Shown piece by piece: positions 1 through 51,691 of a stretch of 53,838 nt of DNA. Under the pieces are notes generated by a model. The model ran no database searches and was not told where the DNA came from. It saw nothing but the letters and a program-made list of their open reading frames with translations. Location: NCBI GenBank assembly GCA_903842025.1, contig CAIMKX010000042.1, forward strand, positions 1 through 53,838, in the 5' to 3' direction. Made by a program: the position numbers and the translations under genes. Every line of letters starts with the position of its first letter. The stretch's first letter is position 1. The stretch comes from an uncultured bacterium. Lineage in GTDB: Bacteria > Patescibacteriota > Minisyncoccia > Phycocordibacterales > PALSA-1337.

Positions 1-363
1 ACCCGATTGGTTGCGGGACTCTGGAAACATGGATTTATTTACCTCAAAATGACTGACGGAAATGAAAAACTGTCATCGTATCTAACTAAGTATATGGCCA
101 AATCATTCATAGATCGCAGGTTGATGAATCAGAAGGCATATGTCTGCTCTAGAAATCTTATTCGTCCTCAAATTCAAGGCGGAATATCAAATTTTGGTAT
201 AGATGTACTTCTAGAAGAATTCGGCGTTGCCACTCCAGAAATCGATAATTCGTATGACACACACTGGTTGGGCAAAGCTCGTCACAGAATCTACAGACTC
301 TCCACAGAAAATCCACTGAAAAAATTGTCAGAAGAAAATATTGAGAGTAAACTTACACCATGA
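1..363 (+). CDS. Rolling-circle replication initiator-like protein, C-terminal part (5' end outside the window)
   Basis: WKHGF...YLTKYMAK resembles the YxxKY catalytic motif of HUH Rep proteins. Stop overlaps the recombinase start (ATGA). Confidence 0.6.
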   Translation, partial: TRLVAGLWKHGFIYLKMTDGNEKLSSYLTKYMAKSFIDRRLMNQKAYVCSRNLIRPQIQGGISNFGIDVLLEEFGVATPEIDNSYDTHWLGKARHRIYRLSTENPLKKLSEENIESKLTP

Positions 364-1830
364 AATATATTATTTACTGCCGAAAATCCACTGATACCGA
401 AGACAAGCAGGTTCTCTCGCTTGATTCACAGGAAGCTGAGCTGAAGAGGTTGGCAGAGACTTTGAATTTGTCCGTTGTTGAAACCCTCCGCGAAAGCCGC
501 TCTGCAAAGGAACCCGGCAGGCCTATATTCAACCAAATGATTGCATCAATTAACGCCGGCAAGGCTGACGCTATTCTCTGCTGGAAAATAGATCGCCTTA
601 CACGCAACCCCGTCGATGGTGGCCAAATTCAATGGCTACTGCAAAATGGAAAAATTCAGTGTATCCGAACATTTGAAAAGAATTTCCTGCCATCAGATAA
701 TGTTCTCCTCATGAGCATTGAACAGGCTATGGCTAGCCAATACATTAGGGACTTAAGTGTAAACGTGAAGAGAGGCAACAGAGCCAAACTTGAACGCGGT
801 GAATGGCCCAATCACGCACCATTCGGCTATTTGAACGACAAAGCTACAAAGAAGGTCGTCATTGATCCGAAGCGTGGACCATATGTGAAGCGCGTCTATG
901 AGTTATATATCACCGGCTCACATAGCTTGAAAGATATCGCTGAAATTCTTTACAAAGAAGGATTACGAACAGCCTCCGGCTACAAAGTCTTTCAAAATCA
1001 GATTCACCGGATTCTTAACAGCAAATTTTATCTCGGCCTCATGGAGCGCGATGGTAAAGTCTATGAGGGTAAACATCCGGCACTAATCACCCGCGATGTA
1101 TTCGATATGGCGCAGGACATTCTTCATGGCCGTCTCCACTCGAGGCACAGAACTCATTTCTATTCAGCTCGTGGATTCCTCATTTGCGGCACCTGTGGAT
1201 GTATCATAACCGCCGAAACACAAAAAGGCTTTTCTTACTATCACTGCACCAATGGCAAAGGTATCTGTGATCAAAAGAAGAATTTTATGCGTTCTGAATT
1301 CATCGACAATCTGCTCTCCGACATCTTCCAGGAACTGAAAATTGAACCCGAACTTATCGAGCTCTCATTCGAGGCCTACAAAGCCCAGAATCAGTCAAAA
1401 TTGGCCTATACAGCTACTTCTACATCCAACTTGAAGTCTGAACTGTACGGACTACCTGCGAAGGAATCCATGCTTACCGACAGTTATACTTCACAAGTCC
1501 TTCGCAAGGATTTATATGAGGAAAAAATGCGTGAGATTGCTAATCGCAAAGTTGAACTTGAAAAGCAGATCAAAGAAATTGAAAATGGATCAGTGCCGGA
1601 AGTTACTATCGAACGGATCAAAAATGTATTTCTAGATTGCAACAAAGCCGCCGATTCTTATTTACAAGCTACGGATGAAGTAAAACGCAGAACTCTGGAA
1701 AAATTACTTTCGAACGCAATCATCAAAAACAAAACTGTGGCTAAGTACAGCTTCAAAAGTCCTTATGAGTTAGTCGCAAACATACCCAAAAACGCCACTA
1801 TTTCTCAAATGCTGCGGGACTTGGACTCGA
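1..1830. mobile_element. Right end of an integrated Rep/serine-recombinase element (plasmid- or phage-like) at the tRNA-Gln 3' end
   Basis: Rep-like gene plus integrase converging on the tRNA 3' end. The other att site is outside the window, so the boundary is approximate. Confidence 0.65.
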
Positions 1831-1871
1831 ACCAAGATAACATCCTCCAGAGGGATGTGTCCTACCATTAG
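360..1871 (+). CDS. Large serine recombinase/integrase
   Basis: YCRKST catalytic Ser, DRLTR, recombinase domain (APFGY), Zn ribbon CGTCG...YYHC, coiled coil. The last ~20 codons are the antisense of tRNA-Gln. Confidence 0.92.
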   Translation: MKYIIYCRKSTDTEDKQVLSLDSQEAELKRLAETLNLSVVETLRESRSAKEPGRPIFNQMIASINAGKADAILCWKIDRLTRNPVDGGQIQWLLQNGKIQCIRTFEKNFLPSDNVLLMSIEQAMASQYIRDLSVNVKRGNRAKLERGEWPNHAPFGYLNDKATKKVVIDPKRGPYVKRVYELYITGSHSLKDIAEILYKEGLRTASGYKVFQNQIHRILNSKFYLGLMERDGKVYEGKHPALITRDVFDMAQDILHGRLHSRHRTHFYSARGFLICGTCGCIITAETQKGFSYYHCTNGKGICDQKKNFMRSEFIDNLLSDIFQELKIEPELIELSFEAYKAQNQSKLAYTATSTSNLKSELYGLPAKESMLTDSYTSQVLRKDLYEEKMREIANRKVELEKQIKEIENGSVPEVTIERIKNVFLDCNKAADSYLQATDEVKRRTLEKLLSNAIIKNKTVAKYSFKSPYELVANIPKNATISQMLRDLDSNQDNILQRDVSYH

Positions 1872-1882
1872 ACGATCCCGCA
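1812..1882 (-). tRNA. tRNA-Gln(CTG)
   Basis: TGCGGGA/TCCCGCA acceptor stem, CATCC-CTCTGGA-GGATG anticodon arm, GGTTCGAGTCC T-arm. No encoded CCA. Confidence 0.95.
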
Positions 1883-1915
1883 ATATATTTCATCGCGCTT
1901 CGAGCGAAGCGAGAA

Positions 1916-1936
1916 GCCCCGAGCTTGTCGAGGGGC
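1916..1936. repeat. Short REP-like palindrome CCCGAGCTTGTCGAGGG (second copy at 51575-51595)
   Basis: Identical 17-bp core in both copies, each just upstream of a stable-RNA gene (tRNA-Gln, tmRNA). Confidence 0.7.
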
Positions 1937-1989
1937 ACATTGCAGAATACCGCAAAATAGGCTATAAAACAACCAGAAAGGAGGGTGCT

Positions 1990-2637
1990 ATGTTGCCAAC
2001 GATCAAGCCCGAAAAAATCATTCCGGGAGAGAATGACGGTGTCTCCGCCAGACGGTTTCTCTTGAAAGAAGATCTTGTTGAGCTCTTTGAAAGGAAAGAC
2101 ATCCCCTATCAAACTTGGGGATCGGGAACGTCAGATTCGTTGGAAAAGCTCCTGACGACCCTGACCAGATGCCAGGTAACGCTCGATCAGAGCGCCGCCA
2201 CGCCATTGTTGACAGTCGACAACGCTGTCGTCATCGTCAAGTATCTCGGTTTATTGCATTGGTGGGAACTTGTCGAGACAAAGCAGGTCTTTCACAATGG
2301 ACAAGTTCGGACCAGGAACTTCAATGGCATTTCCGAGACAATGCACGAGACCGAGAATATCGATGCGGAAGGCATGGAAAAAGCCGCTCGCCGAGCGCTC
2401 GTTGAAGAGCTTGACCAAGATAAAAACGGCTTTGAAAATCCTCGTAACTATGAGCTTATCAAGTGGGACGAGGGAGTCATCGGTCCACAAGAGTCGGAAA
2501 AATGGCCTGGTTTGGACGCGGTCTTCCGTAGACACATATATTTGTGCCTCATCAGACGGAAACTTTTCCGCCGCAAAGGTTACTGTGAAGTTCAGGGTGA
2601 CAAAACCACGTACTTTGAATGGAAACAGATCGTCTGA
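1990..2637 (+). CDS. Hypothetical protein, possibly a degenerate NUDIX fold
   Basis: GGAGGG RBS before ATG 1990. AARRALVEEL resembles part of a Nudix box. Confidence 0.65.
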   Translation: MLPTIKPEKIIPGENDGVSARRFLLKEDLVELFERKDIPYQTWGSGTSDSLEKLLTTLTRCQVTLDQSAATPLLTVDNAVVIVKYLGLLHWWELVETKQVFHNGQVRTRNFNGISETMHETENIDAEGMEKAARRALVEELDQDKNGFENPRNYELIKWDEGVIGPQESEKWPGLDAVFRRHIYLCLIRRKLFRRKGYCEVQGDKTTYFEWKQIV

Positions 2638-2648
2638 GATTCGAGACA

Positions 2649-2697
2649 GCCCGCCTTTCACTTTTCTTTATGAGAAGAGTGGGATGCGGGCTTTTTT
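2649..2697. terminator. Hairpin terminator between convergent genes
   Basis: AGCCCGC...GCGGGCT stem followed by a T-run. Confidence 0.6.
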
Positions 2698-4681
2698 ACA
2701 TCACTTCCCTGGCGCTCTCATTGACCACCTCTTCGGCGATTAGCGATATTTCCTTATTCTCAACCTTGACCTTCTTTTGCTCGCGTTCCTTGGAAGCTTT
2801 GATGAATTCCGTAAAGAGCGGGTGCGGTGCAAGCGGGCGCGCCAGGAATTCGGGATGGAACTGGGTACCAAGGAAGAATGGGTGGACAGATTTTGGCAAT
2901 TCAGCGATTTCCATCAGCACTCCATCCGGCGATTTACCGGAGAATACCAAACCACCTTTCTCCAGCTGTTTAATATACTTCGGATTGACCTCATACCTAT
3001 GCCTATGCCTTTCTTGAATCGTCAACGCCGGCGCTAGTTGTAATCCTTTAGTTTGATTTTTTGACTTTGGATTTGATTTGATATTTGTAATTTGGATTTT
3101 GCTTGCCCTTCGTAGCTCGCTTTGGGCGAGCGAAGAAGGGACTTTTGCGTTAAAATACGCCTCATTCGCAATCGTCCCCCTCGTCAGTTTGGCCGTATAT
3201 CTCCCCAACCTCATGCTCCCCCCATAGTTCCCCTCGGCAATCTTCTTTTTCTGATCCGGCATAATGTCGATAATGAGATGCGGCGCTTTCGGATTGATCT
3301 CGGCCGTCTGCGCTCCACCAAGCCCAAGAACATTCCGGGCATATTCGATAGTCATGAGTTGCATGCCGTAACAAAGACCGAAATATGGAATATTGCGCTC
3401 GCGAGCATAACGAATAACATTCAGTTTTCCTTCTATGCCTGACTCGCCAAATCCGCCAGGTACTATGATACCGTCCATGTTATCAAGTTGCGAATAAGGA
3501 GAATCACTAGAGGTAGGAGGTAAGAGATAAGAGTTAAGATTTTCAGGCTCTGAATCTGAACTCTGTGATTTATTCTTACCTCTTACCTCTAACCTCTTAC
3601 CTCCCTTCCCTTCAAAATCCCTCGCATTCACCGTATGTATTATCGGCTTCACTCCACAAGCGTACGCCGAAAACTTAATAGCTTCCAAAACTGAAATATA
3701 AGAATCTGAGAGAATGAAATCACCCGTATTGAAATATTTGCCCACAATGGCGATATTGACCGTGTGCTTGGTGTGATTCTTGATGCCACGTGCCATCTCT
3801 TTCCAGGCTTTGAATGTCTCATTCGGCTTCGTAACTGGCAGACCGAACGACTCCAGGATGATCTCGCCCAAATGATCGTGCTCAAAATTTATCGGCACAT
3901 CATAGATACTCTTGATATCGGGTGCGGAAATGACCCGATTGGCCGGAATGTTGCAGGCCGTAGCGATCTTTTCCTTGCGGCGTTCATCGAGTGGGTACGC
4001 GGCCCTTGCGATTATGATATCCGTCGTCACGCCATACGAAGCCAGGTGATAAACGGCGTGTTGGGTCGGTCGAGTCTTCATCTCACCGAGCGTTCCGGGG
4101 ATCGGCAAATATGAGACCATAATGAAAAGAACGTCATTGGGATGACGGATCTTGAGGACGCGGGCCGCTTCGATGAACATCACGTTCTGGTAGTCACCGA
4201 CTGTGCCGCCGATCTCGATGATGGAGATATCGGATTTGTTCAGTTTGGCAGAATTTTCGAAGCGGCTGACTATCTCATCCCTGATATGCGGCACCGCCTC
4301 GACGCACTTGCCACCGTACTCCAAGGCCCTTTCCTTCTCGATGACATGCTTGTAGACCATGCCGCTCGTAATATAGTCCGTGGCCTGCAAATCCCTATTA
4401 AGAAAACGCTCGTAGTTGCCCATATCTTGATCGGTCTCCAACCCTGAATTCAAAACAAAAACCTCACCGTGCTCGGTGGGGTTCATTGTGCCAGCGTCTA
4501 CATTGAGATATGGATCGACTTTGACTAGATTGACCTTGAAGCCCTTGGCCGAGAGCAAAGTTCCGATCGATGAAGCGGCGATCCCCTTGCCCACGCCTGA
4601 CATCACACCGCCGATGACAAAAATGTATTTATGGTGATGTTTTGGTTTCTGTAAAAGACCGATGGATTTTTTTGATTTCAT
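2696..4681 (-). CDS. pyrG: CTP synthase with two repeat-derived in-frame insertions
   Basis: GGVMSGVGKG, DPYLNVDAGTMNP, GLCYGMQ, ERHRHRYEVN, QFHPE. At 661 aa it is longer than the usual ~540. Confidence 0.98.
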   Translation of the reverse strand: MKSKKSIGLLQKPKHHHKYIFVIGGVMSGVGKGIAASSIGTLLSAKGFKVNLVKVDPYLNVDAGTMNPTEHGEVFVLNSGLETDQDMGNYERFLNRDLQATDYITSGMVYKHVIEKERALEYGGKCVEAVPHIRDEIVSRFENSAKLNKSDISIIEIGGTVGDYQNVMFIEAARVLKIRHPNDVLFIMVSYLPIPGTLGEMKTRPTQHAVYHLASYGVTTDIIIARAAYPLDERRKEKIATACNIPANRVISAPDIKSIYDVPINFEHDHLGEIILESFGLPVTKPNETFKAWKEMARGIKNHTKHTVNIAIVGKYFNTGDFILSDSYISVLEAIKFSAYACGVKPIIHTVNARDFEGKGGKRLEVRGKNKSQSSDSEPENLNSYLLPPTSSDSPYSQLDNMDGIIVPGGFGESGIEGKLNVIRYARERNIPYFGLCYGMQLMTIEYARNVLGLGGAQTAEINPKAPHLIIDIMPDQKKKIAEGNYGGSMRLGRYTAKLTRGTIANEAYFNAKVPSSLAQSELRRASKIQITNIKSNPKSKNQTKGLQLAPALTIQERHRHRYEVNPKYIKQLEKGGLVFSGKSPDGVLMEIAELPKSVHPFFLGTQFHPEFLARPLAPHPLFTEFIKASKEREQKKVKVENKEISLIAEEVVNESAREVM

Positions 4682-4722
4682 GGGGATATTCTAATAAAAG
4701 GCGGAGAGAATGTCCACAGGAG

Positions 4723-4885
4723 AAAATCCCCCTCTCTTCGCCATGTTCGATACCTCCAGATTCAATCAGAAAATCCCCCGCCTCGCTCCGCTCGGCACCC
4801 CCTTTTTCAAAGGGGGTGGCCGATAGGCCGGGGGATTTTTAGATTGAATCCGGGATGCGGAACAGAGCAAGGCGGAGGATTTTTT
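4723..4885. repeat. Family-A palindromic element (AAAATCCCCC...CCCCCTTTTTCAAAGGGGG...GGGGGATTTT), no core
   Basis: Nested inverted repeats, including GATTCAATC/GATTGAATC at 4759-4850. Confidence 0.85.
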
Positions 4886-4993
4886 AAATAAAAAAGTCCC
4901 CGGAATCATCCAGGGGCTTGTACAAACTCCACTAGCTAAGGTTCTCTTGGTACTAGCCGGTGGCCGTGCTGTCCTTCGTGGCGGTGTCGGGTG

Positions 4994-5028
4994 TTCAACA
5001 CTGGATTCCCGCTTTCGCGGGAATGACA
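4994..5028. repeat. dRS3/RPE-like palindromic arm CTGGATTCCCGCTTTCGCGGGAATGAC
   Basis: ATTCCC-N8-GGGAAT. Matches the arms at 17190-17384 and 52209-52422. Confidence 0.8.
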
Positions 5029-5079
5029 AACAAGACGGTTTCTGCTATTCCCTAAAACCTACCACCTAAAAACTAGTCC

Positions 5080-6036
5080 CTAAACTTTAAGGTACCTCCT
5101 CGCCGCTATATAACTCGACACTCCTCCTAATAGAACTCCTGCTCCCATAATAATGCCGAATATCTGGCCGAAGTTTTGATTAAAATAGGTTGAAAGAACA
5201 TTGACGATAAGCTCGAAGTCAGCCGCCACCTGAACGCCGGCAAAGCGCAATAAAACCGTATCACTCCAGTAGGCAAAAGAGGCCATGACAACAAGCGTGA
5301 TCACCGCCGCCACAATGCCGTACATTATTCCGGAAACGACCAACGGACCGCGCACGTAAATATTGCTGGCGCCGACCAGCTTCATGACTGAGATTTCATC
5401 CTTGGCCGTGAAGATAACCAGGCGAATCGTGTTGAAAACAACGATTATCGCCACCGCCACCAAAAGAATGGCGATGATCAAGCCAGATTTCTCAGCCAGA
5501 GGAATAATTCTGCTAAGACGATCTATAATGAGCTTATTTTGCTCATAATTGATCTTGCTTATGAGAGGCGTGCCACTGGCATCGGCCGGACCCTTGTCGT
5601 TGAGGAAAGTGGCGATATTGCCGTATTGACCGGGATCTTTGGCTTTGATATTGATCGAAGCGGGAAAAGGATTGTCGCCGATCTCCGTCAAGCCTTGCAT
5701 GATAAGAGAATTATTCTGCCATTTGGTTTTGAAAGCAGTCAAAGCCTGGTCTCGGGAGATATATGTCGTCTTGGCCACTTCCGGCAAGGCCTCAATATCT
5801 TTTTGCAAAGCCAAAATGTCGCTCTCCTGGGCTGACAGAGAAATATAAACGTTGATGTCGACCTTGTCTTTGACGTCGGCGATCAAGGCTCGACCGAAAG
5901 CGCCCGTAAAGATTATGAGACCGAAAGCACACAAAGAAAGCGTTATTACAACTATAGAAGCAAAAGAAAGGAAGCCGTTACGCCAGAAGTTGACGAAACC
6001 CGTTCGTGTTATTCTTTTTATGGTTGTAAGAATCAT
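5080..6036 (-). CDS. ftsX: Cell division permease FtsX
   Basis: NFWRN N-terminus, extracellular domain, NTIRL...EISVMKLVGA. Downstream of ftsE. Confidence 0.95.
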   Translation of the reverse strand: MILTTIKRITRTGFVNFWRNGFLSFASIVVITLSLCAFGLIIFTGAFGRALIADVKDKVDINVYISLSAQESDILALQKDIEALPEVAKTTYISRDQALTAFKTKWQNNSLIMQGLTEIGDNPFPASINIKAKDPGQYGNIATFLNDKGPADASGTPLISKINYEQNKLIIDRLSRIIPLAEKSGLIIAILLVAVAIIVVFNTIRLVIFTAKDEISVMKLVGASNIYVRGPLVVSGIMYGIVAAVITLVVMASFAYWSDTVLLRFAGVQVAADFELIVNVLSTYFNQNFGQIFGIIMGAGVLLGGVSSYIAARRYLKV

Positions 6037-6060
6037 AGTGCTAATTATACAGAAATTTAC

Positions 6061-6276
6061 CTAATTGACCTAATTATCTAATTTCTAAGAAATGAACCAA
6101 GCACCAATGTCTAATCACGGACTTTTTTATATATAATTGGTCGGGTAACTTCATCTTTGGTAACAGAATTACAACACCTAATAGCGGCTTCACCAAATTT
6201 TGCCGTTCTTTCTTCTAAGTCGTATTTCTTTTGGTCATTGGTCATTTCTTAGAAATTAGATAATTAGGTCAATTAG
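6061..6276. mobile_element. Heptamer-repeat TIR mini-element carrying a four-helix-bundle gene remnant
   Basis: 35-bp perfect inverted repeat CTAATTGACCTAATTATCTAATTTCTAAGAAATGA at 6061-6095 and 6242-6276, between ftsE and ftsX. Confidence 0.75.
6111..6245 (-). pseudogene. Internally deleted four-helix-bundle protein (23S rRNA IVP / Avd-like family), 44 aa
   Basis: Hand translation gives MTNDQKKYDLEERTAKFGEAAIRCCNSVTKDEVTRPIIYKKVRD*. YDLEERTAKF matches this family's N-terminus; the QLxRA/SIGAN core is missing. Confidence 0.75.
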
Positions 6277-6280
6277 AAAT

Positions 6281-6961
6281 TTACAAAATGTACTTCCCCT
6301 CCCTATCATCTTTAATCACCTTCCCCTTATCCATCGTTATAATTCGGCCGCCGACGGTATCGACAACTCCCTTGTTGTGCGTGGTGAGAAGGACGGTCGT
6401 GCCCAACTCGTTGATTTTTTGCAGAATCCGGACGATCTCATAGGTGTTGGCCGGATCGAGGTTACCAGTCGGCTCGTCGGCTATGACGATATCCGGCTGG
6501 GTGACGATCGCCCGCGCGATGGCCGCTCGCTGGCGTTCACCGCCGGACAATTCACTGGGAAAATTCCAGATCTTGTGGCCCAGATTGACCAATTCGAGGA
6601 CGCGCGGAACGTCTGAAGCCACTTCACCGTCAGTTTTGCCGGAAGCTTCCATGGCAAAGGCAATATTCTCATAAATAGTCTTATTAGGAATAAGCCGGTA
6701 ATCCTGGAAAACCGTGCCGATGCGGCGTCTCAGCTTGGTCATATCGCGCTTTCCCAATCGATGGACATTGAATGATTCCAGGAAAACCGCTCCGGCGCTC
6801 GGCCATTCCTCGCCGATCAGCATCCTCATTAGGGTGGTTTTGCCTGCGCCGGAAGCGCCTACAATAGTCACAAACTCCTTGGGTTCAACACCAAAACTAA
6901 CCTCGTCCAAAGCCACCGTTTTGTCGGGGTAGACTTTGCTAACCTTATCGTAATATATCAT
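6281..6961 (-). CDS. ftsE: Cell division ATP-binding protein FtsE
   Basis: GASGAGKT, VFQDYRL, LSGGE, ADEPTGNLDP. Confidence 0.95.
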   Translation of the reverse strand: MIYYDKVSKVYPDKTVALDEVSFGVEPKEFVTIVGASGAGKTTLMRMLIGEEWPSAGAVFLESFNVHRLGKRDMTKLRRRIGTVFQDYRLIPNKTIYENIAFAMEASGKTDGEVASDVPRVLELVNLGHKIWNFPSELSGGERQRAAIARAIVTQPDIVIADEPTGNLDPANTYEIVRILQKINELGTTVLLTTHNKGVVDTVGGRIITMDKGKVIKDDREGKYIL

Positions 6962-6986
6962 TCAATGAGTATAACAAAATTGGTAC

Positions 6987-7297
6987 AAAAAATCCCCCGC
7001 TTCGGCAGTCAACCCCTTGATTCAATCTGAAAATCCCCCGTCCTTCGGCTCCGCCTCAGGACACCCCCTTTTCCAAAGAGGGATCCTCCATCGAACCATA
7101 TTTATAATATAACTCGCCATGACTTTAATCACTCTTTGTGTTTCGTAATTCAAAGTATTTGAACAATAGCGTCATGTATTACATTAGCTGTACGTTGGTG
7201 GATCCCCCTTTGGAAAAGGGGGTGCCCCGACCAACGGGAGGGGTGGGGGATTTTTTGAAAGATAAAGGGGGTGCCCCGTAGGGGCGGGGGATTTTTA
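6987..7297. repeat. Family-A REPIN-like element with conserved ~125-bp core (copy 1)
   Basis: CCCCCTTT/AAAGGGG arms flank core 7081-7206, which is homologous to 10453-10583 and 31366-31497. Overlaps the prfB stop. Confidence 0.88.
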
Positions 7298-8182
7298 GAT
7301 ATCCCGTTCCGCCTCAATAAACTCCCCTATTTCTCCTTCCAAAACCTTATCAACCTGACTGGTCTCAAAATCTGTCCGATGATCCTTGACCATCTTGTAA
7401 GGATGCAAAACGTAGGAACGTATCTGATTGCCCCATTCGATAGAAGTTGTTGAGGAGATCTGCATACCGCGCTCCTTGGCGATCCGCACATCTTCACTGT
7501 GTTTCCAGAGTTTGCCGCGTAATATTTCCAGGGCTTTTTCCCTATTTTGGGCCTGCGAACGCTCGGAAGTGACATGAATGGAGATACCGGTCGGTTTGTG
7601 GACCAAACGGACGGCCGTCTCCCTTTTGTTGACGTTTTGGCCGCCAGGCCCGCCAGACTTGGCGATGCTAATTTCTAAATCGCTTTCGTTGATGACAATG
7701 TCGCTGGCTGAAGCTTTTTCAAGCTTGGGAACGACTTCAACCATTGAGAAAGAAGTATGACGTTTCTCATTGGCATTAAATGGTGAGATCCTGACCAATC
7801 GATGGACACCGGATTCATTCTTCAAAGTACCATATACATTCTTACCCGAAATTTCGACCGTGATATTACGATATCCACCATGATCATTTTCATTGCTGTG
7901 AATAACGCTCCAACCCCAACCCTTTCCTTCGCAATACTTCCGGTACATTCTGACAAGCATAGATGAGAAATCCTCGGCATCATCACCGCCGGCGCCGGAG
8001 AGGATTGTTACAATAGCTTCGCCTTTGTCGTATTTGCCAATACCTTCCAGACTGTCTTTCAGATTGGCTAGCTCTTTAATCGTTGCCTGAGCTTTTTCCT
8101 TGTCCATCCAAAAATCCCCCGCGGACATGGCAGTCTCAATTTCGGCGATCCTTTCTTGAATTTTGGCTTTATCTTGGTTCAT
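7295..8182 (-). CDS. prfB: Peptide chain release factor 2, compact form
   Basis: SPF motif (VRISPFN), [18 protein letters not shown] at 8182 preferred because the TTG start at 8194 overlaps a tRNA. Confidence 0.93.
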
Positions 8183-8188
8183 TAAGAG

Positions 8189-8261
8189 AGCCAAAGGTCG
8201 GGATTGAACCGACGACCCCCGCTTTACGAAAGCGGTGCTCTACCAACTGAGCTACTTTGGC
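8189..8261 (-). tRNA. tRNA-Thr(CGT)
   Basis: GCCAAAG/CTTTGGC acceptor stem, CCGCT-TTCGTAA-AGCGG anticodon arm. Confidence 0.95.
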
Positions 8262-8415
8262 GAAAGAGTCACCAAGTTTTGACTCAAGAAGAGTGCTACA
8301 TGAACAGCTGTTTTAGTGTCGATATCCACGGTATTAACATCCTACACCGACTACCACTTGAATCATGCCCGTTGGGTATCTAATCCATCAGACATTTTAA
8401 TCTTGGTGACTTTTC
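8262..8415 (-). ncRNA. ssrS: Probable 6S RNA-like structured RNA
   Basis: Closing stem GAAAAGTCACCAAG/CTTGGTGACTCTTTC, a large central bubble and an apical irregular stem. G-U pairs work only on the minus strand. Confidence 0.55.
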
Positions 8416-8446
8416 AATACTATCAGTGCTTACCCGAGACTTCAAG

Positions 8447-8706
8447 AGCCGACGTCCGGGATTGAACCGGAGACCTCGCCATTCGTTTACACCTCACCTT
8501 ACGGGAGGACTAGACTGTATCTTTCTCCAAATCTTTTGGAGACCCTTGTCAGTCGTTCGGGCCCAATCTGTTGGGCCACGGTCTTATCCATTACAAAAGG
8601 CTCTGGACTTTAACCGTTATTCGGGATTCATCTTGACGTTACCGTCAGGATGGGCAGGGTCTTACGACCTACCAATGGCGTGCTCTACCAACTGAGCTAC
8701 ATCGGC
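8447..8706 (-). tRNA. tRNA-Thr(GGT) split by a group I intron (exons 8671-8706 and 8447-8483)
   Basis: Joined exons give the anticodon arm CGCCA-TTGGT|AA-TGGCG, with normal D, T and acceptor arms. Confidence 0.92.
8484..8670 (-). ncRNA. Group I intron, 187 nt, at tRNA position 36/37
   Basis: 5' exon ends in U, intron ends in G. P1 with a U-G pair and GUAA loop, P2 with a GUAA loop, P7 GACUG/CAGUC with J8/7 AAGAUA, P8, P9. Confidence 0.9.
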
Positions 8707-8735
8707 TTATGATTAACTAATTCAAAGAACTCGAG

Positions 8736-8809
8736 CGCGCCCGATGGGGCTCGAACCCACGACCTCTCCCGTGACAGGGGAGCGTTCTAGCCAACTGAAC
8801 TACGGGCGC
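8736..8809 (-). tRNA. tRNA-Asp(GTC)
   Basis: GCGCCCG/CGGGCGC acceptor stem, CTCCC-CTGTCAC-GGGAG anticodon arm. Confidence 0.95.
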
Positions 8810-8856
8810 ATGAACACTAATGTACCAGAATTGAGCCAAAAAACAAAGGGTTGCTG

Positions 8857-8930
8857 TGCCGATGCCTGGACTCGAACCAGGGACCTTCTCTTTATGAGTG
8901 AGATGCTCTAGCCACCTGAGCTACATCGGC
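8857..8930 (-). tRNA. tRNA-Met(CAT), probably elongator
   Basis: GCCGATG/CATCGGC acceptor stem, loop CTCATAA, A31-A39 mismatch. Ile2 is less likely because tRNA-Ile(TAT) is present. Confidence 0.85.
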
Positions 8931-9027
8931 GTTAAACGTTACACTACAATACAATAGACGAAAAACGGCTCCTGTGCAAATCTCCCATTGCTTAAATTAC
9001 CGCTTTATGGCAAAATGTACCGAACAT

Positions 9028-9099
9028 CGCGGGGTAGAGCAACGGTAGCTCGTCAGGCTCATAACCTGAAGATTGTCGGTTCGATTCCGGCCCCCGCAA
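9028..9099 (+). tRNA. Initiator tRNA-fMet(CAT)
   Basis: CGCGGGG/CCCCGCA with the C1-A72 mismatch, TCAGG-CTCATAA-CCTGA anticodon arm. Confidence 0.93.
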
Positions 9100-9103
9100 C
9101 AAG

Positions 9104-9688
9104 TTATTGAGTAATTTCTGGGTGTGCTTTTAAGTATTCATCTCGAACATGTGTACCGAGAGTTTGAGCCGTATTTGGTAGATTCCGAGTAGGATTGTTA
9201 TAGAAGAATTGTTTCAGAAAGTTCATATATTCCCTATCGTACAGAGCATAAATAGATTTTGTTGCCGATGTCTCCACATCATATTTAACCTTAGGATGTT
9301 CGCTATCAATAAAAGAGAAGAAATCATCTCGGTGATCATTGAACGCAGATAAAAATCCTATTGTTTCGACAAACTTCTTTCCAGCATCAGTTAATTGAAC
9401 AGGACTATATGCCTGTAATTCAGTATGATTGAACCCGCCTTGATTTTTTATCAGAAAATCACAGACTACTTTTACATTTGTTTTTATCTTTTCAGACGTT
9501 TTTACAAGCCCATCGAGAACTTGTAATTTTCTACCGATATATATGAATCCAGCGATTAATGAAACCACACCAATCGTCGTGATAACATCAAAAAAAGAAA
9601 CCGAAAATGCTTGAACTGCAGGAACAGCTTGTGTTACCTGTTGAGAACTCTGCATCGTGGATGAAGTAAGAATATTTGATGTCGCCAT
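9104..9688 (-). CDS. Hypothetical single-pass membrane protein, AT-rich
   Basis: 194-aa ORF with one hydrophobic segment. Stop abuts the tRNA-fMet 3' end. Confidence 0.75.
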   Translation of the reverse strand: MATSNILTSSTMQSSQQVTQAVPAVQAFSVSFFDVITTIGVVSLIAGFIYIGRKLQVLDGLVKTSEKIKTNVKVVCDFLIKNQGGFNHTELQAYSPVQLTDAGKKFVETIGFLSAFNDHRDDFFSFIDSEHPKVKYDVETSATKSIYALYDREYMNFLKQFFYNNPTRNLPNTAQTLGTHVRDEYLKAHPEITQ

Positions 9689-9791
9689 AATATTACAATC
9701 ATATCACGCCCATTAGGCGCAAGCATCACAAAACTGTTTATTTCCTGTTTACAATTATCTTTTTGTTTCTATATTTGGAATGGAACATAAC

Positions 9792-10382
9792 CTAGATGTA
9801 GTAAAACTCCTCGAACACCTTCCTGTACATCCCTATCACCCTTTTGGCCTCGATCTGATTCAAGGCAAACCCAGGTTCATGGGCGATCTGATTCCTGACC
9901 TTATGGGCTTCCCAGGCTTCGTTCAATGACTTCATATCGCCAGGATTGACCCTCTTCAATTTGTCGCCGATGCTCTCGCCTTTGTAGCCGAGTTTGGTCA
10001 ATAGATCGTCGAGGATAATATCAGCTTCAATAATCCCCTGCTTCCAGTCATTGGGATTGTCCGACTCGACATGCCTGGTAGCATTTTCCCAGCGATGAGC
10101 CATGACCGTATCTCCCGTCTCGACAGCGTCAAAAGCCGGCTCCACTTTGAGGTCATGGATCTGGGCCTCCTTTTTGCGGATCCGTTTCAAACCTTCAACG
10201 CAATAGACAATTCCGATTATGAAAAAGACCGAAAGTGGAATCGAGATCCCCACAAGGAAACCGTAAAAAGCCTTGAGGAATGAAACTACAGCCGGGAATG
10301 AATCAACGAGCCAATGAAAGGCCGAGACTAGCCAAGGGGAGAAATCCGGCAAAGGTGGCGAGTAATGAGCAGTGTCGGGCAT
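9792..10382 (-). CDS. Conserved hypothetical membrane protein with a HEPN-like helical C-terminus
   Basis: TATAAT 6 nt before ATG 10382. One TM; WKQGIIEAD...AHKVRNQIAH. The ORF-track N-terminal extension is repeat DNA. Confidence 0.85.
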   Translation of the reverse strand: MPDTAHYSPPLPDFSPWLVSAFHWLVDSFPAVVSFLKAFYGFLVGISIPLSVFFIIGIVYCVEGLKRIRKKEAQIHDLKVEPAFDAVETGDTVMAHRWENATRHVESDNPNDWKQGIIEADIILDDLLTKLGYKGESIGDKLKRVNPGDMKSLNEAWEAHKVRNQIAHEPGFALNQIEAKRVIGMYRKVFEEFYYI

Positions 10383-10410
10383 GGGATTATTATAGCGCGA
10401 ATGTTCAAAT

Positions 10411-10636
10411 AAAAAATCCCCCGGCCTGCCGGCCACCCCCTTTTTCAAAGGGGGATCCTCCATCGAACTACATTTTTAATATAACTCGTTGTGACTCTAA
10501 TCACTCTTCGTGTTTGATTTTAACCCAGAGAGTAATTAAGCAGTAGCGACATATATTACATAAGCTATACGTTGGTGGATCCCCCTTTGAAAAAGGGGGG
10601 TGTCCTGAGGCGTAGCCGAAGGACGGGGGATTTTTT
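10411..10636. repeat. Family-A REPIN-like element with conserved core (copy 2)
   Basis: AAAAAATCCCCC...GGGGGATTTTTT termini, core 10453-10583. Confidence 0.9.
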
Positions 10637-10637
10637 A

Positions 10638-12089
10638 TTATTCACTCCCCAAAAACTCCTTCCCCGCCCTGAATATAGTTTCCTCAGCTCCATGCGTCGC
10701 CGTCAACTGAAGTCCGATCGGCAAATCTTTGCCATCTTTCTTGGCGAATCCACATGGAACGGATATCGCCGGCATTCCGGTAATATTGGCGGTGACCGTG
10801 AAAATATCCTCCAAATACATCGAAAGTGGATCGCTGGTCTTTTCACCGATCTTGAAGGCTGGCGAAGGCGCCGTCGGTGTCGCTATCAAATCTACTGATT
10901 CAAAAGCCTTCAGAAAATCATTGGTAATCATCCGACGCACGGCATTGGCTCGATTGTAATAAGCGTCGTAATAGCCTGAAGAAAGAACGTAGGTACCTAG
11001 AAGTATTCGACGAATAACTTCGCGACCCAACCCAGCCTTCCTTGTCTTGAAATAGTCCTCGATACCGTCCTTACCGTCGACATGCAAACCAAATCTCATT
11101 CCATCGTAGCGCGCCATGTTTGAGGAAACTTCCGCCGGCATCACGATATAATAAACCATGAGAGCGTAGGAAATATTCGGCAATTTTACCTCTTTTATCT
11201 CATAGCCTTTTTCCTTGAATTGAACCAGGGATTTTTCAAAAGCCTCCATAACCGATTTATCAATCCCATCACCGCCCAGGAAATGCCTTGGAACGCCTAT
11301 TGTTGGTTTTCGGTCGCCGCTTTGATATTTGATATTTGATATTTGATATTTGTACGTCTGTTCATCTATCGTTGTGCCATCCTTAATGTCTTTCCCGCGA
11401 ATGGCATTGAATACTATTTCGCAATCGGAAACCGTCTTACCGATCGGACCGATCTGATCCAACGAAGAACCCATCGCCATCACACCATACCGCGAAACCG
11501 CCCCATAAGTCGGTTTGAGCCCAACCACACCACAGAAGCTTGCCGGTTGGCGTATGGAACCCCCTGTATCCGATCCAAGAGCAAATAAAGCGCCATCCAT
11601 AGCAACAGCCGCCGCTGAGCCACCGGAAGAGCCTCCTGCGACCCTATTCAAGTCCAAAGGATTTTTGGTCACGCCATAGGCAGAATTTTCCGTCGAACCG
11701 CCCATGGCAAATTCATCCATATTTGTCCGGCCAAGAAAGACGACGCCTTCCGCCTTCAATCTTGAAGTCACTGTCGCGTCATAAGGAGCACGATATTTTT
11801 GCAGAATATTTGACGCGGCGCTGGCAATCTGGCCTTGGATCAAAATATTGTCTTTTATACCGCACGGAATCCCCGTAAGCATTCCGCCTTTTCCGGATTT
11901 AATTATCTTATCAGCCGCTTTTGCCGATTCAATTGCCACATCAAAAACTTCCAAATAAGCATTGACATCCTTGTTCTTTTTCTTTATTTCATCCAAATAG
12001 GCTTGAGTCAATTCGACAGCGGTAAAGTCCCCTCTTTTCAGTGCTTCATGGGCTTTTAATATTGTTAGATCTTTTAAATTAATCTTCAT
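10638..12089 (-). CDS. gatA: Glu-tRNA(Gln) amidotransferase subunit A
   Basis: GIKDNI, DEFAMGGS, GGSSGGS, GSDTGGSIRQPA, RRILLGTY. Confidence 0.98.
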   Translation of the reverse strand: MKINLKDLTILKAHEALKRGDFTAVELTQAYLDEIKKKNKDVNAYLEVFDVAIESAKAADKIIKSGKGGMLTGIPCGIKDNILIQGQIASAASNILQKYRAPYDATVTSRLKAEGVVFLGRTNMDEFAMGGSTENSAYGVTKNPLDLNRVAGGSSGGSAAAVAMDGALFALGSDTGGSIRQPASFCGVVGLKPTYGAVSRYGVMAMGSSLDQIGPIGKTVSDCEIVFNAIRGKDIKDGTTIDEQTYKYQISNIKYQSGDRKPTIGVPRHFLGGDGIDKSVMEAFEKSLVQFKEKGYEIKEVKLPNISYALMVYYIVMPAEVSSNMARYDGMRFGLHVDGKDGIEDYFKTRKAGLGREVIRRILLGTYVLSSGYYDAYYNRANAVRRMITNDFLKAFESVDLIATPTAPSPAFKIGEKTSDPLSMYLEDIFTVTANITGMPAISVPCGFAKKDGKDLPIGLQLTATHGAEETIFRAGKEFLGSE

Positions 12090-12157
12090 TTTTTAAATCC
12101 TTTATCTTGAGCTTTTTATCTAAATTCAAAATTCCAACTTCTTATCTCCTGCGATTT

Positions 12158-12198
12158 CCTAGTTCCTAGTCCCTAGTCCCTAAAAACTAGTCCCTAAC
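12158..12198. repeat. Heptamer tandem repeat (CCTAGTC/CCTAAAA); related arms at ~5050-5085 and 17132-17162
   Basis: cctagtt cctagtc cctagtc cctaaaa actagtc cctaact. CTAAAAACTAGTCCC is shared by the three sites. Confidence 0.75.
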
Positions 12199-12492
12199 TC
12201 AATCCTGTTCAATAATCTTCTTAACCGCCACAAACTCCCCCACCATTTCCGGCGCCTCAGCCATCAGCCTATCCCGATCCTCTTTCGAAATCGGTTCCGC
12301 TAGGTCTCTCCTCGAGACGTTCTTGACCGCCCCCACCCGGTCTTCGGCCGCCGTGGAGACTTTCACTTTCTTCAATTGGTCGACGTAAGCAAGGATGGAA
12401 TCGAATTCTTTGATGAGGGATTTTTTGTCCTCCTCGGCGAGCTCGATGCGCGAGAGAACCGCCAAATGCTCCAATTCTTTGATCGTTATCAT
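12199..12492 (-). CDS. gatC: Amidotransferase subunit C
   Basis: ITIKELEHLAVLSRIEL...ILAYVDQL. TACAAT 6 nt before ATG 12492. Confidence 0.93.
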   Translation of the reverse strand: MITIKELEHLAVLSRIELAEEDKKSLIKEFDSILAYVDQLKKVKVSTAAEDRVGAVKNVSRRDLAEPISKEDRDRLMAEAPEMVGEFVAVKKIIEQD

Positions 12493-12530
12493 ATTGGGAT
12501 TGTAACAGTGATGAAGATTTGCGGCAAGCG

Positions 12531-14719
<2,189 letters not shown>

Positions 14720-14733
14720 CTAAGAATAGCATT

Positions 14734-15366
14734 TTATCCCTTGTATTCCAGCCTGATCGTTCTTTCCACAGCGCGAGCGTTTGGAGTGCTGTTCGGTCCG
14801 GCGCATGGACCGCTATCGGCCAGATTGTATCCGCTGGAATCGATGACTGTTTTATGTTTCGGATTATAGTGATTGTCAAAATAATATCCGTCAGTTATGA
14901 CAATCCTGGCGCAGGTATTATTGGAAAAATTGATCTGCAACGGACTGTTTGTCTGATAGACATTGAATTTTGTGCCGTCAAATGTCGTATTTCCAGGCAG
15001 GTTGTTGATGATCTGCGGAATAAAATGCATGTCTAACACGTCTGATGCGGGAATCGAGTGGAAGCTCGATTCGGCATCGGGAACAGGCGAAGGCGAAGGA
15101 TTGGGATTGGCGCAGTAGATCATGGCGTCCAACGGATATCCATCATCGGTGGAAGTGGCCAGAAGATTGCCCCTGTATCCGTTGAAAGCTTCCACGGCGC
15201 ACTGGATCCCGCCGTCGGCGGCATAGACCGCCACGGTCGAATCGCGGGCCAAGGAAGAAAGGATGAACTGTTTGCGGCTAACCGAAAGGATGAAGGCGGC
15301 AATCGACAAAACCACACTGGAGATGATAACCGCAAAAAGAAGCGTGTATCCTTGTTTGTTGTTCAT
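14734..15366 (-). CDS. Minor pilin, PilX-like
   Basis: G|YTLLFAVII class III signal lacking E5; AVYAADGGIQC. Confidence 0.8.
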   Translation of the reverse strand: MNNKQGYTLLFAVIISSVVLSIAAFILSVSRKQFILSSLARDSTVAVYAADGGIQCAVEAFNGYRGNLLATSTDDGYPLDAMIYCANPNPSPSPVPDAESSFHSIPASDVLDMHFIPQIINNLPGNTTFDGTKFNVYQTNSPLQINFSNNTCARIVITDGYYFDNHYNPKHKTVIDSSGYNLADSGPCAGPNSTPNARAVERTIRLEYKG

Positions 15367-15367
15367 A

Positions 15368-15814
15368 TTATCTGGTGTAATAGGATATCAATTCCTGAAG
15401 CCTGACTTGATTGCCGACGGTACCGGTTTGCCAGCTGACGACGACTGTTGCCAGTACTTGGTAATAGCTAACCCATTGATAATTATAATATCTTGTAAAA
15501 CCGGAAGGTAAAGCTCCTAATGCAGTGATCTGACAAGTCAAAGTTGGCGATGCGCAATTATCGAAGACCGCTGGGTGACTATTGCCGTTCCAAGCACCCC
15601 AATTTGAAGACGTATCCTTATTATCCTTAAGATTATTGATGTACTCCAAACCTTCCTGGGCCAGATTGAAGGCAATGGTCTGTTTTTTGGCGTCGATGGC
15701 CGCCCGGTAGGCTTTGTTGGCGACCGTCAAAGGGCCAACAACCGCCACCATCAGGATGGCAATGGCCACCAAGGTCTCGACCAGCGTAAATCCTTTGTTT
15801 GAAATTATTCTCAT
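15368..15814 (-). CDS. Minor pilin, PilV-like
   Basis: KG|FTLVETLVAIAI...LAQEGLE. Confidence 0.88.
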   Translation of the reverse strand: MRIISNKGFTLVETLVAIAILMVAVVGPLTVANKAYRAAIDAKKQTIAFNLAQEGLEYINNLKDNKDTSSNWGAWNGNSHPAVFDNCASPTLTCQITALGALPSGFTRYYNYQWVSYYQVLATVVVSWQTGTVGNQVRLQELISYYTR

Positions 15815-15819
15815 GAATA

Positions 15820-16461
15820 TTAGTTCGATATCCTTTGCGATATGGCCGTGCGGACATCGAAGGATTCCCTTTCGCTGGCTTTGACTCCGGCGTAGCCGAC
15901 CAACCTGATCGAAACCAAGGGATAGCTCACACCTTCGGTCTTGGAAAGATCATAATCTGTGAGTACGGTACTGACCTCGTCAAACATCTTGGCGTCATTG
16001 GAAGTGATCTCACTGCCACATATAGTCTGCTGGGATTTGCGGAAACTCCAATTATTGTCCCGTATGAACCAATAGGCATATATCAGGGCGCAACTGGGAT
16101 TGGCAGGATCAGTCTTTGTGGATTTGAAAAAAATGCCCTGATCGCGGCCATCTTGAGTGGCGGAATGACAGGGAACAATCGGTAGTGTTGAAAGATTAGA
16201 TCCAGTAAATGAATAACCATTCACATCATGCGTATAAGAGGCGCAGGTGTAATTTGTCCCCACCCGCATTTCCCGGGATATGGACTCCAAGGCAAAACTC
16301 ACATTGTTCATGGCCGACTGCAGGGCTTGGGCCGACCTGTTGAGGCTGGTCATCCTGACCAGAGCTCCGATAGCTATCACGGCCGCCACGGAAAAGACGC
16401 CCAAGGAAACCAGCATTTCCAGCATCGTAAAACCTCTTTGAGTTGATGATTTTTTATACAT
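15820..16461 (-). CDS. Minor pilin, PilW-like
   Basis: RG|FTMLEMLVS...ISREMR. Confidence 0.88.
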   Translation of the reverse strand: MYKKSSTQRGFTMLEMLVSLGVFSVAAVIAIGALVRMTSLNRSAQALQSAMNNVSFALESISREMRVGTNYTCASYTHDVNGYSFTGSNLSTLPIVPCHSATQDGRDQGIFFKSTKTDPANPSCALIYAYWFIRDNNWSFRKSQQTICGSEITSNDAKMFDEVSTVLTDYDLSKTEGVSYPLVSIRLVGYAGVKASERESFDVRTAISQRISN

Positions 16462-16467
16462 GGATTT

Positions 16468-17100: not shown

Positions 17101-17189
17101 GATTATTATAGCAGATTGGGCAATTGGGGGCAGGGACTAGTTTTTAGGGACTGGGGACTAGTATTTGATCAAAAAGAAGATTTTGCGTT

Positions 17190-17384
17190 TGTCATTCACG
17201 CGAAGGCGGGAATCCAGTGTTGAATACCCTAATTGAAAATTAAAAAATCAAAATGGAAAATGACAAGGCAAAAGTTAAAATGAAATCGCATTTGTAGCAG
17301 ACATTTTACATTTTAAATTGTCATTTTCCATTTTGATATTTAAATTTTGCATTATCCTGGATTCCCGCCTTCGCGGGAATGACA
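17190..17384. repeat. dRS3/RPE-like inverted arms enclosing a heptamer-type inverted repeat
   Basis: GTCATTCACGCGAAGGCGGGAATCCAG...CTGGATTCCCGCCTTCGCGGGAATGAC, with inner TCAAAATGGAAAATGACAA / TTGTCATTTTCCATTTTGA. Confidence 0.85.
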
Positions 17385-17402
17385 ATTCAAATGCCCTCCC
17401 GA

Positions 17403-18188: not shown

Positions 18189-18194
18189 TTGTTT

Positions 18195-18692: not shown

Positions 18693-18750
18693 AGCCAAAT
18701 TATAGCGCCAAGTGAGGATTTATGGAAGCAAGCTTTCATATAATCCGCCT

Positions 18751-19299: not shown

Positions 19300-19357
19300 G
19301 GCAATATGGTACCACAATTCGGCAAATAGATATCCACAGCGGTCACTAGACCTGATG

Positions 19358-29969: not shown

Positions 29970-30040
29970 TAGAGGTAAGAGGTAAGAGATAAGATAAATC
30001 GCATTAAATCTTAACTCTTACCTCTTACTTCTTAACTCTT
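29970..30040. repeat. Heptamer (TAAGAGG/CCTCTTA) inverted-repeat element
   Basis: Tandem 7-mers in inverted orientation around AAATCGCATTAAAT. Confidence 0.85.
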
Positions 30041-31314: not shown

Positions 31315-31540
31315 AAAAATCCCCCGCCCCTCGCTTCGCTTCGGGGCACCCCCTTTTCCAAAGGGGGATCTTCCAACGTACAGCTAATGTAATACATGTC
31401 GCTATTATTTAATTAATCTTCGGGTTTAAAATCAAACACAAAGAGTGATTAGAGTCAGTGCGAGTTAAATTAAGAAAGTGGTTTGATGGAGAATCCCCCT
31501 TTGGAAAAGGGGGTGCCCCGTAGGGGCGGGGGATTTTTTT
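31315..31540. repeat. Family-A REPIN-like element with conserved core (copy 3, inverted)
   Basis: Core 31366-31497 is the reverse complement of the cores at 7081 and 10453. Confidence 0.9.
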
Positions 31541-33141: not shown

Positions 33142-33208
33142 GGGATTGTTATGTATCGGATACTATTATACAGCGTAAACGCCTGGCGTGTCATCCCCAG
33201 TGGAAGAA

Positions 33209-38549: not shown

Positions 38550-38574
38550 GATTTTAGATTTGAATTGACGTTGC

Positions 38575-38683
38575 AAATTTCTAATTACCTAATTTCTAAT
38601 TGACCTAAGAAATGACCAAACTTCAATTGGAACTTGGTCATTTCTTAGAAATTAGGTAATTAGGAATTAGGAATTAGGAATTT
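38575..38683. repeat. Empty derivative of the 6061-6276 heptamer element, overlapping the tyrS stop
   Basis: TTGGTCATTTCTTAGAAATTAG at 38634-38655 is identical to 6238-6259. Only 14 bp separate the arms. Confidence 0.85.
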
Positions 38684-51167: not shown

Positions 51168-51197
51168 AAGGATAAACTAGCATAAGAACAATTTTTG

Positions 51198-51610: not shown

Positions 51611-51691
51611 GAGGTAAGAGGTAGGAGATAAGAGGTAAGAATCATCGCATAACGCTTTTGTTCTTATCTCCTAGCTCTTACCTCTTACCTC
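51611..51691. repeat. Heptamer (TAAGAGG) inverted-repeat element
   Basis: gaggtaagaggtaggagataaga...ATCGCA...tcttatctcctagctcttacctcttacctc. Confidence 0.85.

Follow-up and report, generated by a model that had tools for sequence, protein, structure and literature searches.

The window considered here is a stretch of 53,838 nucleotides that forms contig C42 of the genome of an uncultured patescibacterium (the host genome; 0.95 Mb, 56 contigs, 45% G+C). Between the genes ftsE and ftsX of this window lies a small element, at positions 6061-6276, made of two inverted arrays of degenerate heptamers, the arms, around an open reading frame (ORF) of 44 amino acids (aa). This element is probably a dead, internally deleted copy of a selfish cassette of the intervening-sequence type, with relatives that resemble MITEs (miniature inverted-repeat transposable elements), and it is proposed that the duplex formed by its arms would be cut by RNase III. 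From ftsE to ftsX, the locus contains the following features:

6281..6961, minus strand: ftsE, the upstream host gene, whose stop codon abuts the end of the element
6277..6284, no strand assigned: outer terminus AAATTTAC, a direct repeat with its partner at 6053-6060
6242..6276, minus strand: 5' arm (in the sense of the remnant ORF), a CTAATTN-type inverted array with the end CTAAGAAATGA, which holds the start codon of the ORF
6111..6245, minus strand: 44-aa remnant ORF, with its ATG at 6245-6243, within the right arm
6096..6110, minus strand: 3' tail after the stop codon (ACATTGGTGCTTGGT...), homologous to the post-stop tail of a full-length relative
6061..6095, minus strand: 3' arm, complementary to the 5' arm at every position
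6053..6060, no strand assigned: outer terminus AAATTTAC, a direct repeat with its partner at 6277-6284
5080..6036, minus strand: ftsX, the downstream host gene, with a TATAAT-like box 8 nt ahead of its ATG

The ftsE-ftsX element and its enclosed ORF

The two arms (6061-6095 and 6242-6276) are 35 nt long and 100% complementary, and they enclose a spacer of 146 nt. Their units are of the CTAATTG/ACCTAATT/ATCTAATT/TCTAAGAA type, that is, CTAATTN-like. A perfect 35-nt inverted repeat that splits ftsE from ftsX, and an enclosed 44-aa ORF starting in the right arm, had been described in a first reading of the sequence (the original prediction), and both observations are confirmed. In addition, the tail at 6096-6110 forms an imperfect inverted repeat with the first codons of the ORF (6231-6241). 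When folded as RNA, the element reaches -77.4 kcal/mol, compared with -41.1 +/- 4.5 kcal/mol for 200 shuffled sequences (z = -8.0), none of which (0/200) was as stable.

The direct repeat AGAAATTTAC found at both ends was considered as a target-site duplication, for which the original prediction had suggested looking, and this reading was rejected, as about 20 copies of the family show AAATTT(G)C, a palindromic element terminus. The AAATTT(AC) located just outside both arms corresponds to the usual end of the family, (G)CAAATTT / AAATTTG(C), which is itself palindromic and is part of the element.

The nature of the ORF had to be established through full-length relatives, because the peptide alone, submitted to the hidden Markov model (HMM) scans that had been suggested for it, gave no Pfam or NCBIfam family match (only DUF1694, E 0.12). 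A translated search of 61 genomes, including the host, showed that the peptide matches the N-termini of ORFs of 120-143 aa in six other genomes, with nine matches in relatives besides that to the closest one; the best matches to the ORFs of the relatives have 64%, 58%, and 50% identity, and these ORFs also match PF05635. The closest relative, of 120 aa, is found in another species (G014:C71, locus L035), and its scores exceed the cut-offs of TIGR02436 (62.8 bits against 24) and PF05635 (39.5 bits against 33.8). By BLASTP, the first high-scoring segment pair aligns residues 1-43 of the remnant with residues 1-44 of this relative (61% identity, E 2e-18), and the C-terminal one, IYKKVRD, corresponds to the last seven residues of the relative (E 0.015). 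At the DNA level, the full-length gene has the same CTAATT-type arms and the same post-stop stretch, ATTGGTGCTTG.TCATTTCTTAG.

The two BLASTP segments, along with the shared arms and 3' tail, indicate that the 44-aa ORF is the remnant of a PF05635/TIGR02436 four-helix-bundle gene, as the original prediction held, from which an in-frame internal deletion has removed about 75 codons while keeping both ends. The invariant core columns of the family (Q..R..S..N..E and a later E, in four helices) all fall in the deleted segment, and the remnant is predicted to be non-functional as a family member.

In G014 the full-length CTAATT cassette (L035, 382-951) is nested within an outer inverted repeat of AATAATC/AATAACC units, which suggests that one heptamer element entered another's loop.

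Gene-less copies and intact cassettes

The second locus of the family in the window is the following:

38571..38673, no strand assigned: gene-less CTAATT-family copy, between comF-like and tyrS-like genes

As originally described, this locus shares a 22-bp arm with the ftsE-ftsX element: exact copies of the 22-mer TTGGTCATTTCTTAGAAATTAG are located at 6238-6259 and 38634-38655 (0 expected from 100 shuffles), and the perfect 15-nt inner arms of the second copy, CTAAGAAATGACCAA and TTGGTCATTTCTTAG, are 14 nt apart. Its outer arms (38571-38599 and 38645-38673) are 29 nt long and 90% complementary. This copy retains only the start-codon region (ATGACCAA) and the 3' tail, and is devoid of the ORF body.

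The host genome contains about 20 CTAATT hairpins of 100-135 bp, all intergenic and endowed with common termini and inner ends. The original prediction regarded the many empty heptamer inverted repeats of the window as footprints of the element, a view that the comparison of the gene-less CTAATT copies does not favor. The left arms of different copies are 0.78 identical, above the 0.67 match between the two arms of a single copy, and the loop sequence is common to many of them; because of these two features, the gene-less copies look like products amplified from a short master, and not like independent decay products or excision footprints. Among the 61 genomes, the diagnostic pattern of the CTAATT family occurs only in four genomes of the genus, G000 (5 hits), G014 (9), G021 (5), and G017 (1); one further hit with one mismatch, in G056, is probably due to chance. 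Both G014 and G021 carry intact cognate genes as well. No Rfam family was found for the hairpins. Like MITEs, they are short and multi-copy, and their terminal inverted repeats are common to a longer coding element, but this longer partner (G014:C71) encodes the four-helix-bundle protein alone and no transposase. The succession of full, internally deleted, and empty forms that had been proposed for this family has its full form in G014, and a second succession of this kind occurs at the dnaB-recR junction, discussed below.

As a side observation, a DDE_Tnp_1 transposase gene at the start of contig C47 (387-1100) ends beside a CTAATT hairpin with a truncated left arm, and a similar left junction (TTTCGTAATTCGGGGTAATTAC) is also present on C46 (200-352).

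The one intact family gene of the host genome is on contig C35, between dnaB and recR, and is flanked by 32-nt inverted arrays of the GAGTTAA type. This arrangement was examined in other genomes by means of a flank score, defined as the ungapped inverted-repeat score between the two flanks of a gene, with a threshold of at least 12. The threshold was reached by 30 of the 37 family genes of the relatives; with other window settings the count was 27/37, versus 21/822 for the ORFs of the host genome. Two of the low scorers, L031 and L032 (score 7 each), are weak Avd-like matches located beside reverse transcriptase (RT) genes and have no arms. Further support was provided by a scan across phyla, with one genome per species and the best 80 of 601 relatives, 77 of which had both flanks; by their record titles, they belong to Patescibacteria, Bacteroidota, Acidobacteriota, Planctomycetota, Gammaproteobacteria, Clostridia, Cyanobacteria, and others. 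In this set, 60/77 genes scored at least 12, versus 7/231 cross-paired flanks, and seven was the top autocorrelation lag upstream of 52/77 and downstream of 42/77 genes, compared with 4/77 control stretches. The expectation that intact family genes would be flanked by inverted 7-mer arrays was thereby borne out both in the relatives and across phyla. As a rule, the 5' array ends with the unit that contains the ATG, and the 3' array directly adjoins the stop codon. Flanking rRNA was absent from all 60 family loci scanned.

Each gene lineage has its own unit sequence, and the 13 cassettes of G039 and G021 all differ from each other. The median number of flank 7-mers in common is 21 at a protein identity of at least 70%, 6.5 at 60-70%, and 3-4 below, so that the heptamer tracks protein similarity, a relation that the original prediction had put forward as a check, only at 70% identity and above. 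For the intact genes, the ratio of nonsynonymous to synonymous divergence (dN/dS) is 0.05-0.14 (6/9 pairs with dS unsaturated), pointing to strong purifying selection. Moreover, a gammaproteobacterial genome with a GAGTGAG-armed cassette has the same array at more than 50 places, and one cyanobacterial genome contains a cluster of heptamer arrays.

Such data could be read as the traces of a DNA transposon, with the arms acting as terminal inverted repeats, the four-helix-bundle protein as the element's own mobility factor, which would bind DNA or hairpins and perhaps enlist a nuclease or recombinase of the host, and the short hairpins as its MITEs. This explanation accommodates the joint travel of gene and arms in many phyla, the private unit sequence of each co-resident paralog (the 13 cassettes of G039 and G021), the selection acting on the protein, the abundance of short copies in both other genomes with intact cognate genes, the arm sequence kept between cassettes whose synonymous sites are saturated, and a mismatch bias of the arms (see below) compatible with a bottom-strand DNA hairpin. 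However, no catalytic motif is known in a helical bundle of 120 aa, the search for a target duplication was negative, the host genome keeps about 20 short copies without the cognate protein, and the co-variation of arms and protein is equally explained by co-inheritance; as a full account, it is judged unlikely.

The conserved gene junctions illustrate how these elements come and go. In 30 genomes of the genus, the ftsE-ftsX spacer ranges from 6 to 247 nt, is 22 nt or shorter in 11 of them, and has at least eight insert types. CTAATT is represented by a hairpin in G026 and a relic in G064, the sister species G078 has an AATAACC hairpin, and further spacers are occupied by heptamer arrays of other kinds or by unrelated elements with inverted repeats. 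A tree of FtsE and FtsX (two genes only) places each of the three CTAATT occupants in a different clade with support of its own, and the remaining members of these clades are without the element. Of the 29 dnaB-recR loci with both genes, four carry an intact cassette (three arm types in all), one carries a relic with an internal deletion in which the last 13 C-terminal codons remain, and two carry a one-armed relic; 13 have spacers of 55 nt or less, and six have other inserts. The cassette found at this site in G021 belongs to another protein subfamily. Orthology between cassettes of different species is also seen in some cases, at a synonymous divergence that is saturated. Because the spacer states and arm types vary at both junctions, the ftsE-ftsX element is neither fixed nor simply orthologous across relatives, as foreseen, and gain and loss occur along with long retention. 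The comparison with the nearest species, G078, provided no usable empty site, as nucleotide identity is only 72-80%; in that species, an unrelated inverted-repeat element of 190 nt occupies the comF-tyrS junction.

Another possibility is that the elements have no mobility of their own and spread by homologous recombination through the conserved flanking genes after DNA uptake, while the arrays change by replication slippage. The repeated occupation of ftsE-ftsX and dnaB-recR, the orthologous and old cassettes, and the unit number and order, which differ between the arms of one element and between copies, agree with this possibility, as does the different unit number among Coxiella strains reported in part of one article (PMC4990558). 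Nevertheless, it leaves unexplained about 20 copies dispersed at unrelated sites of a 0.95-Mb genome with a common loop sequence, the different subfamilies at one site, and the CTAATT cassette nested in the AATAACC hairpin of G014, and it is considered highly unlikely.

Mobility, RNA processing and known systems

The preferred reading, a cassette of the intervening-sequence type, can be described as follows. The cassette consists of a gene of about 120 aa for a four-helix-bundle protein (PF05635/TIGR02436, a relative of Avd), exactly bracketed by inverted arrays whose units are degenerate 7-mers, and it would be co-transcribed with the host operon, here ftsEX. The arms would pair into a duplex of at least 35 bp, which the host RNase III would cut, so that the cassette RNA would be released or insulated, as for rRNA intervening sequences; this cutting would render insertions within operons and rRNA tolerable. 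The ftsE-ftsX copy would now survive as a hairpin only. As a working guess held with low confidence, new copies might arise at the DNA level, with the cognate four-helix-bundle protein recognizing the arm arrays, and the gene-less copies might be mobilized in trans; confidence in any particular mobility mechanism is low. An RNase III gene is present in the host genome.

Several results weigh against this reading, in addition to the missing HMM match of the peptide. For this organism, co-transcription and RNase III cutting are purely inferred, and a look-up of RNA runs returned none that contains the locus. In a wobble test of the sense RNA on 240 mismatches (91 arm pairs from relatives and other phyla), 84 were of the A.C type versus 41 compatible with G:U (naive p = 1.5e-4), so that for the arm transition mismatches the wobble-compatible version is on the antisense strand, and compensatory maintenance of pairing was not seen in the gene-less CTAATT copies. 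No cognate transposase was found, the host genome containing one rve and one DDE_Tnp_1 match, no Y1 transposase, and no TnpB. Comparison of the termini of about 20 copies revealed no consistent duplication beyond the apparent direct repeat of 8-10 nt. Contigs from four DNA runs over window positions 1-20000 are interrupted within the arms; they revealed no polymorphism of filled and empty sites and, among the joints listed, no joint across 6061-6276. The host genome is without the cognate protein subfamily and yet has about 20 short copies, which may be old. Finally, the old orthologous cassettes suggest long-term vertical retention rather than frequent movement.

The relationship of the family with Avd, the accessory protein of diversity-generating retroelements (DGRs), offers yet another route, by which an Avd-like protein would recruit an RT, for instance that of a resident DGR, and an RNA with hairpin ends would be copied into DNA. 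PF05635 proteins are related to Avd according to the relevant part of one article (PMC10053308), and the C35 protein has a weak bAvd match (31.1 bits); a weak Avd equivalog match below the cut-off was also obtained. The host genome also has three RT genes (ORFs of 338-365 aa), each accompanied, at a distance of no more than about 0.5 kb, by a weak PF05635 (Avd-like) match in divergent orientation:

C50:6517-7131, minus strand: RT/Avd-like locus
C9:25084-25692, minus strand: RT/Avd-like locus
C38:15492-16103, plus strand: RT/Avd-like locus

These three loci look like DGR-type modules. However, no RT adjoins any of the cassettes examined, and the host RT genes, on C9, C38, and C50, are near neither the ftsE-ftsX locus nor the C35 cassette. 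RT and family gene are not associated: both occur in 16 genomes, the family gene without RT in 12, RT without the family gene in 12, and neither in 20. No RT match was obtained in 12 of the 28 other genomes with the family gene, among them G051 and G053, both 100% complete and assembled in few contigs. The Avd-like genes beside RTs are also armless, and a retro-mobile origin is judged most improbable. The ftsE-ftsX element shares with Avd a homologous four-helix-bundle family, but it has no adjacent RT or template/variable repeat, and it is not a DGR module.

Its nearest known counterpart is the S23p-ORF-bearing intervening sequence of 23S rRNA, and for this reason the element is classed as a variant of that type located outside rRNA, with offspring resembling MITEs. 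Published passages on Coxiella (PMC4990558) describe a 28-bp terminal inverted-repeat stem that is cut by RNase III, three tandem heptamers upstream of the S23p ORF, whose number varies with the strain, and deletions of the ORF in some strains; they term the sequence selfish and quote older proposals by which intervening sequences are remnants of transposition, or mobile elements whose ORF serves mobility. The likeness to the intervening sequences of Coxiella, Leptospira, and others, as far as that text covers them, includes the same protein family, here as a remnant and in G014:C71 intact, the ORF inside a terminal inverted-repeat stem, heptamers directly ahead of the start codon, ORF deletions, and sporadic spread (PMC4990558). 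Similarly, part of a study of the candidate phyla radiation (CPR) reports intervening-sequence protein (IVP) ORFs within rRNA insertions (PMC11270868). Unlike these examples, the present element lies between the protein genes ftsE and ftsX and not in helix 9, 25, or 45 of the 23S rRNA, its window contains no rRNA, its arrays are longer and on both sides, and about 20 gene-less copies occur in one genome. The description of the element as undescribed can thus be kept in part only: stems and heptamers around S23p ORFs in 23S intervening sequences are already in print (PMC4990558, in the portion available), whereas no description of non-rRNA heptamer-armed cassettes or of their hairpin offspring was found in a literature search that left subscription journals and supplementary files beyond its scope.

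Other small repeats were compared as well. The gene-less copies recall bacterial MITEs and small hairpin repeats, such as the Correia/NEMIS elements, in being 100-135 bp long, intergenic, multi-copy, provided with long inverted ends, present in operons, and derived from a longer coding element through internal deletion; they differ in that no target duplication was found, the longer partner has no recognizable transposase, and the ends are tandem heptamer arrays instead of a unique inverted-repeat sequence. Repetitive extragenic palindromic (REP) sequences and bacterial interspersed mosaic elements (BIMEs), with their RAYT (Y1) transposases, are abundant intergenic hairpins that also lack target duplications, but the host genome yielded no Y1 transposase, the arms of the present elements consist of heptamer arrays, and the associated protein is different and does not look enzymatic. 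Heptamer repeats themselves are known from Xanthomonas (GGGAATC), Nostoc (GGGGAYT), and Beggiatoaceae (TAACTGA), as intergenic tandem 7-mers that often form inverted pairs, often end before a start codon, and are unexplained in the portions of the papers that deal with them (PMC4692102, PMC4679880). They resemble the present arrays in forming inverted 7-mer pairs and in lying at start codons, and the same portions of these papers make no mention of a four-helix-bundle gene (PMC4692102, PMC4679880).

Other hairpins and the significance of the locus

A census of the host genome gave 64 heptamer-periodic inverted pairs of at least six arm families, CTAATT included. The original prediction took the other heptamer repeats of the window for footprints of the ftsE-ftsX element, but they belong to the GAGKTAA and AAAATGR families:

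17236..17348, no strand assigned: AAAATGR-unit heptamer hairpin, of the same class as the ftsE-ftsX element and separate from it
29971..30032, no strand assigned: GAGKTAA-family heptamer hairpin, of the arm type of the intact family gene on C35
33208..33292, no strand assigned: GAGKTAA-family hairpin, with another at about 32633-32735
51611..51684, no strand assigned: GAGKTAA-family hairpin

The loop motif AATCGCA is common to GAGKTAA, AAAATGR, and AGGGACT hairpins (29971-30032, 33208-33292, 51611-51684, and 17236-17348 in the window, and C41:2303-2377), which hints at a common short core beneath the differing arrays. Genes located between distant pairs of heptamer arms (LexA-like, response regulator, KsgA-like, and L29) were considered as alternative cargo and rejected, being ordinary genes between two separate hairpins. 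Separately, the L29 gene rpmC (C38:46591-46854) is directly bracketed by inverted GAGKTAA-type arrays in a cassette-like manner.

The position of the hairpins raises the question of whether they serve the host, as RNA punctuation for processing, stability, termination, or stop codons in all frames, the gene being incidental. Hairpins do occur within operons, including those for ribosomal proteins and cell division, and stop codons close all three frames of the inward-read arm strand in 29/91 cases (9.1 expected), versus 11/91 for the outward-read strand (3.2 expected); the idea that heptamers provide stop codons in all frames is thus partly supported, for about a third of the inward arms and not as a general rule. 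Conversely, the presence of hairpins is highly variable at orthologous spacers, many relatives having only 6-22 nt, gene ends are not preferred over divergent spacers (37/10/5 versus 484/109/115 by spacer type, with crude ORF calls, hence no placement bias), and the gene is conserved and always exactly between the arms. This explanation is given almost no credence.

Some further features of the window and of the two junctions deserve mention. Two other abundant families of palindromic repeats, non-heptameric and with the cores TGTCATTCCCGCGAAAGCGGGAATCCAG and CACCCCCTTTTTCAAAGGGGGAT, have dozens of copies genome-wide; they are found in the window at 4766-5029, 7017-7317, 10436-10599, 31342-31520, and 44534-44595, on many other contigs, and in the ftsE-ftsX spacer of relatives. 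A TATAAT/TATACT-like box is present 6-9 nt ahead of the ATG of ftsX and recR in many members of the genus (window 6037-6060; L044-L073, L177-L206), suggesting internal promoters that would give leaderless or near-leaderless ftsX and recR mRNAs; the spacer inserts at ftsE-ftsX and dnaB-recR sit between the upstream stop codon and this box. The window also contains a transfer-messenger RNA (tmRNA) gene (51195-51557) and a cluster of tRNA genes (8189-9099), around which the contigs from public runs break and rejoin.

First encountered in rRNA intervening sequences, the PF05635/S23p family has solved structures and, to our knowledge, no assigned function. Heptamer repeats, in turn, are a long-standing oddity of bacterial genomes. 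It is conceivable, though doubtful, that PF05635 genes and their inverted heptamer arrays constitute a single pan-bacterial class of mobile cassettes, of which the rRNA intervening sequences would be atypical insertions that happened to be noticed first, with a pentameric protein recognizing the three to five units of its own arms and gene-less offspring accounting for much of the heptamer-repeat excess. The ftsE-ftsX locus links the protein family with the heptamer repeats, a link that recurs in every phylum sampled: at the loci sampled, the family gene is almost always enclosed by inverted heptamer arrays and almost never located in rRNA. As this locus illustrates, cassettes of this kind decay into numerous hairpins punctuating the operons of a very small genome, and the value of this dead locus is that of a key to the architecture of the whole family.

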